The translations under genes and the position numbers were made by a program. Below, one piece after another: positions 52,331-59,078 of a DNA stretch of 64,000 bases (the stretch's first letter is position 1; each line of letters starts with the position of its first letter). The notes under the pieces were generated by a model, which saw nothing but the letters and a program-made list of their open reading frames with translations, ran no database searches and had not been told where the DNA came from. This stretch comes from Candidatus Euphemobacter frigidus (lineage in GTDB: Bacteria; Auribacterota; Erginobacteria; Erginobacterales; Erginobacteraceae), in NCBI GenBank assembly GCA_030765805.1, contig JAVCDH010000017.1, positions 2,467-66,466 on the forward strand, in the 5' to 3' direction.

Positions 52331-52468
52331 AAGTGACTAAAGTGAACTTCCGCCTTCGCTAGCCTCCTTCGCCATAGTAGCCTATGGCTACGGCGGCTGA
52401 AAAGCTACGGCGGATAAAAAAGTTTACCCGCCGTAGCTATGTAATAGCGAAGGAGGGTGACTAAAGTT
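52331..52468. repeat. 138-bp composite of tandem repeats and nested REP-like palindromes, copy 1
   Basis: Differs from 54496-54633 at two positions. Confidence 0.92.
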
Positions 52469-53703: not shown

Positions 53704-54489
53704 TTAAAAAAACTTCTGTTTTTCCAGAGCGGCGACCAGGCGATCTACCATCTCCGCGGGTTCTCCTTGAAATATCTCTCCCCCCTCGCGAGCGGGCGGA
53801 GAAAAGATCTTTACCACCTGGGTGGGAGAACCATCCAGACCGATAAATTGTTCATCAACACTGATATCGGCGGCAGTCCAGGTAATAATCTCCGCTTTCT
53901 TCGCTTTCAGCTTCCCTTTCAAAGAAGGGAGACGCGGTTCGTTGATCTCTTTGACCACGGTCAGGAGAATGGGCAGATCCCCTTCTATAATCTCGTAGCC
54001 TTCCTCGGTCATCCTCTGAACGCGGATCGTCTCTTCTCCGATCTCCTCGATCTTCTTGACATAGGTAATCTGGGGAATATCCAGCTGGACGGCGATGCCA
54101 GGACCGACCTGGGCGGTATCACCGTCGATCGCCTGCTTCCCGCAGATAATAATATTATAATCCCCTTTCTTCTCTATCCCCCGGGCAAGGGTATAGGCAG
54201 TCGCCAGGGTATCGGCCCCGGCGAAGGCCCGGTCACAGAGATGAATCGCCTCATCCACCCCCAGCGAAATCGTCTCACGCAGAGCGTCCTCCACCTGGGG
54301 CGGCCCCATGCTGATCACGCTGACCGTGCCTCCGTACTTCTCTTTGATCCGGACCCCCTCCTCGATGGCGTAGAGGTCGAAGGGGTTGATGATGCTCTCC
54401 ACCCCTTCCCGGACCAGGGTATTGGTCTCCGGGTTGATCCGGATCTCGGTAGTGTCAGGGACCTGTTTGATGCAGACGATTATGTTCAT
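53704..54489 (-). CDS. etfB: Electron transfer flavoprotein beta
   Basis: Motifs KQVPDT, NPFD and GKQAIDGDTAQVG. Confidence 0.95.
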   Translation of the reverse strand: MNIIVCIKQVPDTTEIRINPETNTLVREGVESIINPFDLYAIEEGVRIKEKYGGTVSVISMGPPQVEDALRETISLGVDEAIHLCDRAFAGADTLATAYTLARGIEKKGDYNIIICGKQAIDGDTAQVGPGIAVQLDIPQITYVKKIEEIGEETIRVQRMTEEGYEIIEGDLPILLTVVKEINEPRLPSLKGKLKAKKAEIITWTAADISVDEQFIGLDGSPTQVVKIFSPPAREGGEIFQGEPAEMVDRLVAALEKQKFF

Positions 54490-54495
54490 GAAAAA

Positions 54496-54633
54496 AAGTG
54501 ACTAAAGTGAGCTTCCGCCTTCGCTAGCCTCCTTCGCCAAAGTAGCCTATGGCTACGGCGGCTGAAAAGCTACGGCGGATAAAAAAGTTTACCCGCCGTA
54601 GCTATGTAATAGCGAAGGAGGGTGACTAAAGTT
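54496..54633. repeat. 138-bp composite repeat, copy 2
   Basis: Direct repeat of 52331-52468; abuts the acyl-CoA dehydrogenase stop. Confidence 0.92.
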
Positions 54634-55791
54634 TCATTTCTTGCTCGCGCTCTCCCGGATCAACTGGGTGCCGATCACGTCCCGCTGGATCTGATTGGTC
54701 CCTTCGTAGATCTGAGTAATCTTGGCGTCGCGCATCATCTTCTCAACCGGATACTCCTTCATATAGCCGTACCCGCCGAAGATCTGAACCGCGTCGGTGG
54801 TCACGCTCATGGCTACATCGGAAGCGAACAGTTTGCAGATCGCCGAATCCTTGGATATCCTCTTCGCCCCCGCGTCGACCGTCCGGGCAACGCTGTAGAC
54901 CAGGGCCCGGGCCGCTTCCACCCGGGTCGCCATGTCAGCCAGCATCCACTGGAGCCCCTGGAAGGTGATAATGGGCCGGCCGAACTGTTTCCTCTGACGG
55001 GCATACTCAACCGCCGCGTCCAGCGCCCCCTGGGCAATGCCAAGCGACTGGGACGCTACTCCCGGACGGGACTGATCCAGCGTCTTCATGGCAACGATGA
55101 AGCCCATCCCTTCCCGGGAGATCAGGTTTTCCGCGGGAACTTTGCAGTCCTCAAAGATAAGTTCCGCGGTGGAGGAAGCCCGGATGCCCATCTTGTGCTC
55201 ATCCTTTCCGACGGAGAAACCATCCATTCCTTTCTCAACTATGAAGGCGCTCGCACCCCGGCTTCCTCTGCTCTTATCCGTCATCGCGATAACGGTAACA
55301 ATATCCGCGACACTTCCGTTGGTGATGAAACACTTGGTTCCGTTGAGAATGTAATAATCACCTTCTTTTCTGGCGGTCGTCCTGGTCGCTCCGGCGTCGC
55401 TTCCGGCTTCCGGTTCGGTCAGGGCGAAGGCGGCCAGGGTCTTGCCCGTGGCCAGATCGGGAAGGTACTTCTTCTTCTGCTCGTCATTTCCAAAGAGAAG
55501 GACAGGGAAAGCCGCCAGGGCGGTAGCGGCCAGGGAGAGCGACATCCCCCCACAGACCCGGCTCAACTCCTCCACCGCGAGGCATAACTCCAGAACCCCC
55601 CCACCCAATCCACCGTACTCTTCCGGAAGGTAGATCCCGAACATATCCGACTGCCGCAGGACTTCGACTATCTCCCAGGGGAACTCCGCTTTCTCATCCA
55701 TCTCCGCCCGGAGCGGTTCTAATTTCTCCTCCGCGATCTGACGGGCAAGGTCCTGTATCATTACCTGTTCTTCGGTTAAAAAATAGTTCAT
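54634..55791 (-). CDS. Acyl-CoA dehydrogenase (butyryl-CoA dehydrogenase-like)
   Basis: Motifs FALTEPEAGSDA, QIFGGYGY and IYEGTNQIQR. Confidence 0.93.
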   Translation of the reverse strand: MNYFLTEEQVMIQDLARQIAEEKLEPLRAEMDEKAEFPWEIVEVLRQSDMFGIYLPEEYGGLGGGVLELCLAVEELSRVCGGMSLSLAATALAAFPVLLFGNDEQKKKYLPDLATGKTLAAFALTEPEAGSDAGATRTTARKEGDYYILNGTKCFITNGSVADIVTVIAMTDKSRGSRGASAFIVEKGMDGFSVGKDEHKMGIRASSTAELIFEDCKVPAENLISREGMGFIVAMKTLDQSRPGVASQSLGIAQGALDAAVEYARQRKQFGRPIITFQGLQWMLADMATRVEAARALVYSVARTVDAGAKRISKDSAICKLFASDVAMSVTTDAVQIFGGYGYMKEYPVEKMMRDAKITQIYEGTNQIQRDVIGTQLIRESASKK

Positions 55792-55892
55792 GGCTCCCCC
55801 TTAAAATTTTTCTTCGAATAATATTATTTCTAAATTAACAAACAGCCCCCCGAATGAATCAGTCGGGGGGCCCGGTAAAAAGATACTCAGTC

Positions 55893-56153
55893 CTACTTAC
55901 TGAAACGTCGGAAGACCAGGGTGCCGTTATGCCCACCAAAGCCGAACGAGTTGCTAAGAGAGAGATCTAACTCTGTGGGGTCAAAGTTCTTCACCTCCCC
56001 GCCGATCTGCGACGCGAACTCGGAAGGATCAAAAGCCGTAATCCGGCCGATCCCGCTTCGGCAGGTAACCAACGAGTCCCAGAACTCAACCGGGTTATTG
56101 CCGATCGGTGATATCACTCCCATACCGGTGACAACAACTCTCCGTTCCAACAT
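55893..56153 (-). pseudogene. fabF: FabF with a large in-frame internal deletion (about 60 N-terminal aa fused to about 25 C-terminal aa)
   Basis: [15 protein letters not shown]...[11 protein letters not shown] joined to [15 protein letters not shown]; follows acpP. Confidence 0.88.
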
Positions 56154-56261
56154 TCCTTCCTCCTTAAATACGACACTTCCCTATTACACACACCTCTATC
56201 CGTCTAAAACCAATGGCGGATAGAGGTGGGTTGCGGATTGATTTATTAGATCTTTTCTTTC

Positions 56262-56504
56262 TTATTCAGACTTGGCGGTCGCTTCAATATACTTGATAGC
56301 GGCGCCGACTGTGGTCAATTTCTCCGCTTCTTCATCAGGAACTTCGATATCGAAGGCCTCTTCCAAGGCCATAACCAATTCTACGGTATCCAGAGAGTCG
56401 GCCCCCAGATCGTCAATAAATGACGCCTCTTCGGTAACCTCTTCCGGATTGACGCCCAGCTGCTCCACAATGATATCCTTTACTTTCTGAGTTACGTCCG
56501 CCAT
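56262..56504 (-). CDS. acpP: Acyl carrier protein
   Basis: Motif [12 protein letters not shown]. Confidence 0.97.
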
Positions 56505-56534
56505 CTTACTTCCTCCTTTATGGTTTGTACTACT

Positions 56535-57275
56535 TTATATATACATTCCCCCATCAATAATTAAAACCTGGCCGGTGATGTAGGAAGCGGATGGGGAGGC
56601 CAGGAAGACAACCACTCCGGCTACATCTTCCGGGGTCCCCATCCTGCTCAGCGGGATCGCTTTTACCATCTCCTCCTTGATCTGAGGAGGTATCTTGTCC
56701 GTCATCTCGGTGGCAATAAAACCGGGGGCGACCGCGTTAACTCGAATTCCCCTCGGTGCCATCTCTTTGGCCAGGGACTTGGTCAGAGCAATCAACCCAC
56801 CTTTGGAGGCAGCGTAATTGGCCTGCCCCGCGTTTCCCATCAATCCGATAATTGAAGCCACGTTTACAATACAGCCGGAACGCTGCTTCATCATGCTCCG
56901 GGCGGTGGCCCGGCTCAGGTTGAAGGCCCCTTTCAGATTAACCGCGAGAACCGAATCCCAGTCTTCTTCACTCATCCTGATCAAGAGAGCGTCACGGGTA
57001 ATCCCGGCATTATTTACCACTATATCTATGCTTCCCCAGAGGTCAAGAATTTTATTAACCGCTTCCTGAACCTGGGAAAGCAGGGAGATATCGACCGTCC
57101 AGGCCAGAGATCTCCGCCCGGCTTTCTCGATCAAAGCCGCGGTTTCCTTCGCGCCCGGCTCATCCATATCCAAGACGGCGATGGCGGCCCCCTCCCCGGC
57201 CAGCGCCAGGGCGATGGCCCGGCCGATTCCTCTCGCGCCACCTGTGACAATCGCTTTTTTGCCCTCCAAAAACAT
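56535..57275 (-). CDS. fabG: 3-oxoacyl-ACP reductase
   Basis: Motifs TGGARGIG, NNAGITRD and YAASK; start moved to MFLEGK. Confidence 0.95.
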   Translation of the reverse strand: MFLEGKKAIVTGGARGIGRAIALALAGEGAAIAVLDMDEPGAKETAALIEKAGRRSLAWTVDISLLSQVQEAVNKILDLWGSIDIVVNNAGITRDALLIRMSEEDWDSVLAVNLKGAFNLSRATARSMMKQRSGCIVNVASIIGLMGNAGQANYAASKGGLIALTKSLAKEMAPRGIRVNAVAPGFIATEMTDKIPPQIKEEMVKAIPLSRMGTPEDVAGVVVFLASPSASYITGQVLIIDGGMYI

Positions 57276-57303
57276 GACTCTCCTCCTGATTTCTTTGTTA
57301 AAC

Positions 57304-57352
57304 CTAAATTGAGCGATTATTGCAGTTCGCCGCATAGAATCGCTCAATTTAG
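57304..57352. repeat. 15-bp inverted repeat CTAAATTGAGCGATT ... AATCGCTCAATTTAG
   Basis: Perfect arms; a single arm also occurs at 34766-34780. Confidence 0.8.
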
Positions 57353-57359
57353 ATTTGAA

Positions 57360-57542
57360 TTAACTCTTTTCTGCCTGGATTACAAGCTTGCCTTTATAGT
57401 AACCGCAGTAGGGACAGATTCGATGAGGTTGCCGCGGTTGGTGACAATGAGGACAGGGAACAGTCCGAGGAAGACTGAATTTATGCCCCGCCCGGCGGGA
57501 TCGCTTTCGAGTTTTACTGATCTTTCTCTTTGGAACAGCCAT
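57360..57542 (-). CDS. rpmF: 50S ribosomal protein L32 (Zn-ribbon type)
   Basis: MAVPKRKISK...CPHC...HRICPYCGYY. Confidence 0.96.
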   Translation of the reverse strand: MAVPKRKISKTRKRSRRAGHKFSLPRTVPCPHCHQPRQPHRICPYCGYYKGKLVIQAEKS

Positions 57543-57561
57543 AAAACCACCTACTCCTCGG

Positions 57562-58020
57562 TTAAAATTTAATTTTATCCAACTCCGCGAAGGGGGAGAC
57601 ACTTCGTTCAACAGAGCAGTCACAACTCCCCTGGTTCAAATCCTGACCGCAAGACGGGCAGATCCCCCGACATTCCGGTTGACAGAGAGGTTTCACTGAA
57701 ACGGCGAGAATAATATCCGTCCTGATATCGTCCGTCAAGTCAATTGTCTCCCCGCGATCGGTCACCTCTCTCTGGACCTGAAAATCCTTTATCTCCAGCG
57801 GTGCTTCAAATTTCTTAAGGCACCGGGAACAGGTAAAACGGACTACCGTGGTCAGCCGTCCTCGAACCAGCAAGATATTGCCGGCCAGAGAAATATCCAG
57901 ATCATACTGTATCGGCCGATAAAATTCAGCCCCCGGATCCTGGATATCGATAATAGAGGGGGCTTCTTCTCCCCGCGCGGTCAAACCATGGGGAGGAATT
58001 GATCTGAGATCGATGAGCAT
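57562..58020 (-). CDS. DUF177/YceD family protein
   Basis: Motifs CSRCL and KPLCQPECRGICPSCG; precedes rpmF. Confidence 0.92.
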   Translation of the reverse strand: MLIDLRSIPPHGLTARGEEAPSIIDIQDPGAEFYRPIQYDLDISLAGNILLVRGRLTTVVRFTCSRCLKKFEAPLEIKDFQVQREVTDRGETIDLTDDIRTDIILAVSVKPLCQPECRGICPSCGQDLNQGSCDCSVERSVSPFAELDKIKF

Positions 58021-59078
58021 TATCCGGATTTAAAAGCCTTCACCACAGGGGTCGGAACGAATGCTGAGATATCCCCGCCCAGAAGAAAAATCTCCTTCAC
58101 CATTCTGGAACTGATATAGGAACAGGCTTCGCTGGGCATCAAGAAAATTATCTCCAGCTCGGGGGATAGCTTCCGGTTGGTCAGTGCCATCTGGAACTCA
58201 TACTCGAAGTCGGAGACCACCCGCAACCCCCGGATCAAGATCCGGGCGCCCTTCCGGGCGGCAAAATCAATCAACAACCCTGAGAATGACTCAACTTCGA
58301 CCTCCGGCAAGGATGTTATGGACTCACGAATTAACGAAAGCCTCTGAGATAGTGGGAAGAAGGGCTTCTTCTCCATATTGTCGGCAACGGCGATCGTCAG
58401 TTGGGGGAAGACCCGGGCGGATCTCTGAATCAGATCCAGATGGCCCAGAGTAATCGGATCGAAGCTTCCCGCGTAGATCGCCCGTTTCCCATTTTTCCTG
58501 TCGCTATTCATATCCCGATACAGAAATGTAAGTCCGGTCTGTCCGTATTTTTTAGCTTGAATCTCCTGCCATGATAAATCGGGGAGGACAGGCTTGGTTC
58601 GGTAAAAATGTTCGATAACCACCAACCCATCCTCGCGCAACATATCAAATTTCCCGATCAGAGACAATATATTTTCACCGATCGTCTTACCTTTCTCTCC
58701 GGAGCTTTCATACGGAGGGTCCGCCAATATCAGATCGAAACGGTCACCCCTCTCCCCCAGCCTTTTCAGGGCAGTCCGGTAATCGTCGGTAATAATCTCG
58801 CTCTCTTCTTCCACTGCCAGCCCAGCGATATTGGCCTTGATTATCTCCAGAACGGGGCCGGATCTCTCCACGAAGATAACCTTCTCCGCCCCCCGGCTCA
58901 GCGCTTCCAGCCCCAGAGCGCCGGTACCGGCAAAGAGATCCAGTACCCGGCTACCGGCCGCCGTATCCCCCAGAATGCTGAATAATGCTTCCCGGACCCG
59001 GTCGGCGGTGGGTCGGACTCGCCGACCACTGAGCGTCTTCAACTTTCGTCCCTTATATTTTCCCGCGATAATCCTCAT
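58020..59078 (-). CDS. rsmD-coaD: In-frame fusion of 16S rRNA m2G966 methyltransferase RsmD and phosphopantetheine adenylyltransferase CoaD
   Basis: RPTADRVRE, LDLFAGTG and DPPY, then with no stop YAGSFDPITLGHLD, RGLRVVSDFEYE and SSRMVKE. Confidence 0.9.
   Translation of the reverse strand: MRIIAGKYKGRKLKTLSGRRVRPTADRVREALFSILGDTAAGSRVLDLFAGTGALGLEALSRGAEKVIFVERSGPVLEIIKANIAGLAVEEESEIITDDYRTALKRLGERGDRFDLILADPPYESSGEKGKTIGENILSLIGKFDMLREDGLVVIEHFYRTKPVLPDLSWQEIQAKKYGQTGLTFLYRDMNSDRKNGKRAIYAGSFDPITLGHLDLIQRSARVFPQLTIAVADNMEKKPFFPLSQRLSLIRESITSLPEVEVESFSGLLIDFAARKGARILIRGLRVVSDFEYEFQMALTNRKLSPELEIIFLMPSEACSYISSRMVKEIFLLGGDISAFVPTPVVKAFKSG

Follow-up and report, generated by a model that had tools for sequence, protein, structure and literature searches.

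The 86-aa open reading frame at 55893..56153 is very probably the remnant of the lineage's original fabF gene, lying at its ancestral position and left behind after extra fab clusters elsewhere in the genome made the native copy redundant. Positions refer to the window, i.e., the whole stretch of 64,000 nucleotides of DNA that was analysed, and the remnant, like its expression signals and the neighbouring rpmF, fabG, acpP and acyl-CoA dehydrogenase genes, is encoded on the reverse strand. Residues 1-61 of the frame correspond to the N-terminus of FabF and residues 62-86 to its C-terminus. In relatives, a full-length ortholog occupies the same position, and the same genome encodes intact FabF paralogs elsewhere. 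Because there are two such intact fabF copies, the locus can be understood as a case of ordinary gene decay. The most likely status of the remnant is that of a pseudogene that is still translated but has no function, its frame having been kept by chance.

The order of events that we infer would run as follows. This lineage of Ca. Auribacterota would have gained two extra clusters, namely fabH-acpP-fabF beside the acc operon (on contig C9 of the assembly) and fabH-fabD-acpP-fabF (on contig C75), and these would have made the native fabH and fabF genes redundant. The native locus would then have lost fabH cleanly, together with approximately 984 nt from the middle of fabF, and would have kept the genome's only fabG gene plus an acpP gene. 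The fabF deletion would have been in frame by chance, an outcome expected once in three times, sparing the Shine-Dalgarno (SD) sequence, start codon, stop codon and terminator, and it would have occurred late on the branch that separates the species from its relatives.

Anatomy of the remnant and its operon

The remnant begins with ATG and ends with TAG, and its SD sequence, AAGGAGG (56159..56165, 5 nt upstream of the ATG), resembles that of the intact fabF gene on C9. Compared with orthologs of 414 aa, approximately 328 codons are absent between codon E61 (GAG; 55971..55973) and the next codon, a junction that we located by codon alignment with four orthologs and by alignment with the genome's full-length FabF proteins. 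The blocks containing the catalytic Cys and both His residues are absent from the remnant in codon and protein alignments alike; the ACATS, HGTST and GHLLGA blocks of the C9 and C75 FabF proteins fall wholly within the remnant's alignment gap, and there is no Cys-His-His triad. These direct observations bear out much of an earlier note on this DNA, which had stated that the start, SD sequence, stop and both termini are intact (both FabF ends do align), that roughly 330 central codons are gone along with the catalytic Cys and His residues, and that particular residues, beginning with FDPTE, flank the junction; the residues that it gave are correct in the codon alignments. The note also suggested mapping microhomology at the junction. 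We found no repeat there, and any microhomology is at most 3 nt (the GAG codon is the most that could be common to both sides), with base-level resolution prevented by the approximately 20% divergence from every ortholog.

The first 61 aa of the remnant are 75-81% identical to orthologs from the family, and the C-terminal 25 aa are 65-79% identical. In Pfam searches, the remnant matched PF00109 at positions 2-59 of 252 only and did not match PF02801, the C-domain, so the two-domain architecture is lacking. Against TIGR03150, the fabF equivalog model, it scored 85.9 bits over profile positions 1-58 only, which falls short of the cut-off of 493.75. Descent from fabF is supported directly by the syntenic position after acpP and by placement in a FabF tree, in which the remnant lies within the family's FabF clade (support 98/98). 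The remnant is therefore like FabF/KAS II (TIGR03150; PF00109 plus PF02801) in its ancestry; however, it is missing the central residues, the triad and nearly all of both domains, and it cannot be a condensing enzyme. The peptide is probably still translated, without enzymatic function.

The 3′ end of the fab operon has been retained after the remnant, in the form of a terminator-like GC-rich hairpin of 9 bp with a U-rich tail (55845..55871), which in folding is followed by UGUUUGUU. Our sigma-70/terminator scan missed this hairpin because the 9-nt loop is longer than the scan allows; folding reveals it. A hairpin after fabF is also found in relatives (L041). Another GC-rich hairpin, located between acpP and fabF (56185-56225), is retained upstream of the remnant. 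Across relatives, it is the position of this hairpin, not its sequence, that is conserved (equivalent spacers in L034, L035 and L042), and it is probably an attenuator or a processing site.

Synteny around the remnant was compared directly with that in relatives. In four genomes of the same family (G001, G002, G005 and G007) and in a co-occurring sister population (L042-L044), which was assembled from the same sample series as the window's population, the conserved order is recG-rsmD-coaD-yceD-rpmF-fabH-fabG-acpP-fabF-ACAD-etfB-etfA, with a fabF of 414 aa. In the window, the ancestral fab operon is anchored upstream by rpmF, encoding L32 (57360..57542; TIGR01031, 79.5 bits). The rpmF gene is followed by a spacer of 84 nt (57276..57359), where relatives carry fabH, and then by fabG (56535..57275), which is the sole FabG-type gene found in the genome, and acpP (56262..56504), which is one of three copies. 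The downstream anchor is the acyl-CoA dehydrogenase (ACAD) gene (54634..55791), which follows full-length fabF in relatives. Thus, fabH is wholly absent from the window's native locus. The native locus is nevertheless still needed, because the fabG gene located there is the only one in the genome. None of the 30 relatives examined has a mini-fabF. Populations whose ACAD is 91-92% identical either carry full-length fabF or are represented by a contig that ends early (L041, in which only the C-terminus of fabF is visible), and we found no population with an ACAD identity between 92% and 100%. Close ACAD and FabF matches bear names that place the MAG in Ca. Auribacterota, and the FabF protein of G007 carries the name Ca. 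Erginobacter occultus. We found a single dedicated paper, on MAGs from Ace Lake (PMC9324843), and it does not discuss fatty-acid synthesis.

Several other features of this neighbourhood deserve mention. The rpmF-fabG spacer contains a perfect 15-bp inverted repeat at 57304-57318 and 57338-57352 (CTAAATTGAGCGATT / AATCGCTCAATTTAG, with a 19-nt loop), which was not seen in the rpmF-fabH spacers of relatives. Possible interpretations are an operator, an attenuator and a scar left by deletion. The fabH-fabG spacers of L034, L035, L036 and L042 are 209-363 nt long and contain tandem arrays of short words, e.g., TTGACGG and CGTCTTC repeats; these arrays may be rearrangement hotspots. Public gene calls on identical contigs have a 56-aa ORF without a Pfam match (57380-57550) in place of rpmF; the real L32 gene is the overlapping frame at 57360-57542. 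The rsmD and coaD genes form one frame of 352 aa in the window (58020-59078) and occur as two distinct genes in G001, G002, G005 and the sister population. A direct repeat of 138 bp with 2 mismatches (54496-54633 and 52331-52468) brackets etfBA, with one copy in the ACAD-etfB spacer and the other after fer4-etfA. A search of positions 54400-57800 with Rfam returned nothing credible.

The junction in independent assemblies

The earlier note had left a choice between a recent deletion and an assembly collapse. In the latter case, the junction would be a collapse or chimera, and the organism would truly have a full-length fabF gene at this position. The nature of the assembly gives some reason to consider this, as the genome is a MAG of 116 contigs, and the same samples also contain related Auribacterota whose locus is intact. 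However, the exact 86-aa protein is encoded on at least 21 contigs, which come from three pipelines and many different samples: ENA MEGAHIT assemblies of several ERZ2731xxxx samples, four JGI metagenomes, and Logan assemblies of SRR8526178 and SRR5581653. Every contig has the gene order fabG-acpP-mini-ACAD-etfB-etfA, and the DNA is 100% identical to that of the window except for one SNP in etfA in one contig. Moreover, the junction recurs unchanged in a second allele (P0001, on contig L040), which differs at six bases, and there is no repeat at the junction that could produce a collapse. The fabF gene of the co-occurring relative, at approximately 72% identity to the remnant, is too distant to have been confused with it. 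Collapse of the genome's own paralogs is ruled out on similar grounds, given that the remnant shares just 72% identity with C9 FabF and 64% with C75 FabF.

We also looked for an intact allele in a collection of 5.8 billion proteins, using a length-matched probe and scoring only the remnant's first 61 residues; no full-length FabF in this collection exceeds 81% identity to the remnant over the N-terminus. In view of these results, we regard an assembly artefact as extremely improbable. We conclude that the deletion is genuine and that, on the public data, the only known population is fixed for it.

Other fab clusters and their origin

The assembly that contains the window is 94.7% complete with 1.1% contamination. 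A search of the whole of it with PF00109 found two further genes, with open frames of 421 and 427 aa (413 aa each in the ORF listing). One is part of the C9 cluster, in the order fabH-acpP-fabF, and the other belongs to the third cluster, on contig C75 (L039 4588-8189), in the order fabH-fabD-acpP-fabF. The encoded FabF proteins pass TIGR03150 with 663 and 652 bits, respectively, against the cut-off of 494. An inventory of the genome by tblastn located fabG in the window only, fabH on C9 and C75 only (two copies), full-length fabF on C9 and C75 only, acpP once in each of the three clusters (window, C9 and C75), and fabD in three copies (on C75, C9 and C33); accABCD is also present in the bin. 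The search for other fabF genes that the earlier note recommended has thus yielded two intact copies, and its concern that fatty-acid elongation would be lost if the deleted gene were the only copy does not apply, because the genome carries these copies elsewhere.

It is important to consider whether these contigs and the window come from one organism. Their linkage is based on binning, composition and co-occurrence. The acc genes on C9 are single-copy in the bin, the tetranucleotide profile of C9 correlates at 0.98 with the genome mean, and the samples whose assemblies contain the remnant also yield the C9 and C75 FabF genes. C9 thus seems to be part of this genome.

The C9 fab cluster is located between an AllF-like gene and accA-accD-accC-accB. 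It has no fabG gene, and its fabH stop codon is separated from the acpP start codon by 30 nt. Since the same AllF-like/accA-D-C-B neighbourhood in G002 has no fab genes, the C9 cluster is evidently an insertion specific to the lineage. Because C9 lacks fabG, the native locus and the C9 cluster complement each other. In this respect the locus resembles reciprocal-loss pseudogenes that follow duplication or xenologous operon displacement, with fabH and fabF missing from the native locus and fabG missing from C9. It differs from full reciprocal loss, however, in that acpP is retained in all three clusters, and it differs from typical pseudogene remnants in that the deletion is clean and in frame, the expression signals are intact, and there are no frameshifts and no riddling with stop codons. 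The locus thus offers an example of complementary loss between redundant operons, in which the native operon keeps fabG and the new locus carries fabH and fabF, as well as an example of a deletion remnant that retains all of its expression signals.

With the fatty-acid pathway spread over three acpP-containing clusters, a reconstruction based on the canonical rpmF-fab locus alone would wrongly infer that the species has lost fatty-acid initiation and elongation. Indeed, the absence of fabH and the gutting of fabF at this canonical locus might be taken as a sign that type II fatty-acid synthesis is being given up in favour of lipid scavenging. We find this scarcely credible, given the intact genes in the bin (fabH in two copies, fabF in two, fabD in three, acpP in three, fabG in one, and accABCD), and given that plsX and fabD were never part of the family's ancestral operon at this site.

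The source of the extra clusters is a more difficult matter. In the FabF tree, the remnant, the C9 protein and the G002/G005 proteins form a polytomy, whereas the C75 protein clusters with G011/G013, which represent another family (support 94/94), an indication that C75 is of horizontal origin. All genes, including those of C9, show a synonymous divergence of approximately 0.9-1.5 from their counterparts in relatives. Because such values are near saturation, dS is uninformative about the order of duplication and speciation; because the C9 genes have the same dS as other genes, the second fab cluster is presumably old. We infer that the C9 cluster arose either by duplication within the genome followed by loss of fabG, or by transfer from a close relative.

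Under a more specific proposal, the C9 fabH-acpP-fabF genes came by horizontal transfer from related Auribacterota and never had a fabG gene, and the native genes were displaced thereafter. Several observations are in its favour: the window's acpP is 94% identical to that of relatives versus 86% to that of C9; dS on the retained codons is 0.6 between the remnant and G002 versus 1.3 between C9 and G002; C9 FabH is 89.6% identical to the FabH of the co-occurring sister population, which is above the value for other genes; the insertion site is empty in G002; and there is the precedent of C75, whose FabF groups with another family. However, the polytomy in the FabF tree does not favour this proposal, the full-length C9 genes show the same dS from those of relatives (1.0-1.5) as do the vertically inherited genes of the window, and the 30-nt spacers that precede acpP in the window and in C9 have the same SD block, which is consistent with a common origin. 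On balance, we consider transfer with displacement somewhat unlikely.

Constraint on the remnant and related short frames

The stem branch leading to the remnant in the FabF tree is 0.19 long, compared with 0.086 for C9. The small sample of 84 retained codons gives dN/dS values of 0.15-0.25 for pairs involving the remnant versus 0.06-0.10 for pairs of intact genes, with dS near saturation. Such values suggest that the remnant is under modestly relaxed constraint. Some residual constraint on the peptide is possible, because dN/dS is far below 1 and conserved motifs are intact. On the assumption that the remnant has evolved neutrally ever since it lost its core, an excess dN of approximately 0.06 would place the deletion in about the last sixth of the branch, an estimate with a wide error.

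The two alleles provide a view of more recent change. The dominant allele differs from L040 by three nonsynonymous and three synonymous changes, all of which fall within 55 nt of the remnant (codons 14-32; 56056..56114, compared with 846-900 of L040), with no difference in the other 1128 nt compared. In the dominant allele, D22V, A29V and A30T are derived, and Asp22 is a conserved residue; the L040 states, common to G002 and G005, look ancestral. These six clustered changes fit relaxed constraint, but they may represent a single event. Gene conversion from C9 or C75 was considered as a source of the tract and rejected, as the tract matches neither paralog. With respect to the earlier note's description of a clean in-frame excision with no other decay, the internal deletion is well supported; the absence of other decay is not, since fabH was lost at the same locus and the dominant allele has acquired these three replacements.

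It might seem that a frame preserved in this way is kept by selection, either because translating it would shield or place the 3′ end of the highly expressed fabG-acpP transcript ahead of the terminator, or because it encodes a micro-protein with ACP or KAS partners as binding targets. The SD sequence, start, stop and terminator are intact, the frame is preserved in both alleles, the most conserved FabF motifs are unchanged, and dN/dS on the remnant's lineage is well below 1. However, an in-frame outcome has a one-in-three chance of arising without selection, and a low lineage dN/dS is explained if most of the divergence predates a late deletion. In addition, the sole changes at the population level in 1.4 kb are in the remnant itself, and they include three amino acid replacements, one of them at Asp22. 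Structure prediction also gives little encouragement to a functional micro-protein: AlphaFold2 yielded a single-sequence model with a pLDDT of 37 and no confident fold. Single-sequence prediction often yields poor models. A native-like fold is in any case not expected, because, in the known thiolase-fold architecture of KAS enzymes, the retained N- and C-terminal pieces lie in different halves. There is also no diverged homolog with the same architecture, and other frames that combine the N- and C-terminal parts of KAS are singletons with other junctions and contexts. We therefore regard selection for the frame as improbable. A variant in which translation matters because the frame serves as a spacer that maintains the 3′-end architecture and the stability of the fabG-acpP transcript, or because a KAS-derived micro-protein still touches ACP or the KAS dimer and so modulates both intact FabF paralogs, is very improbable. 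A remnant of the native fabF gene remains our preferred explanation.

The other short frames just mentioned are metagenomic mini-KAS ORFs (P0015, P0041, P0042 and P0046). They are like the remnant in that an internal deletion joins an RRVVVTG N-terminus to the C-terminus, but they come from unrelated lineages, have other junctions and neighbours, and are each a singleton or confined to one run. A recurrent family of mini-KAS proteins is ruled out, as these other examples are singletons in unrelated contexts. Among the loci that encode them (L061-L064), one such ORF lies just upstream of rnc, and another overlaps the end of an SDR gene.
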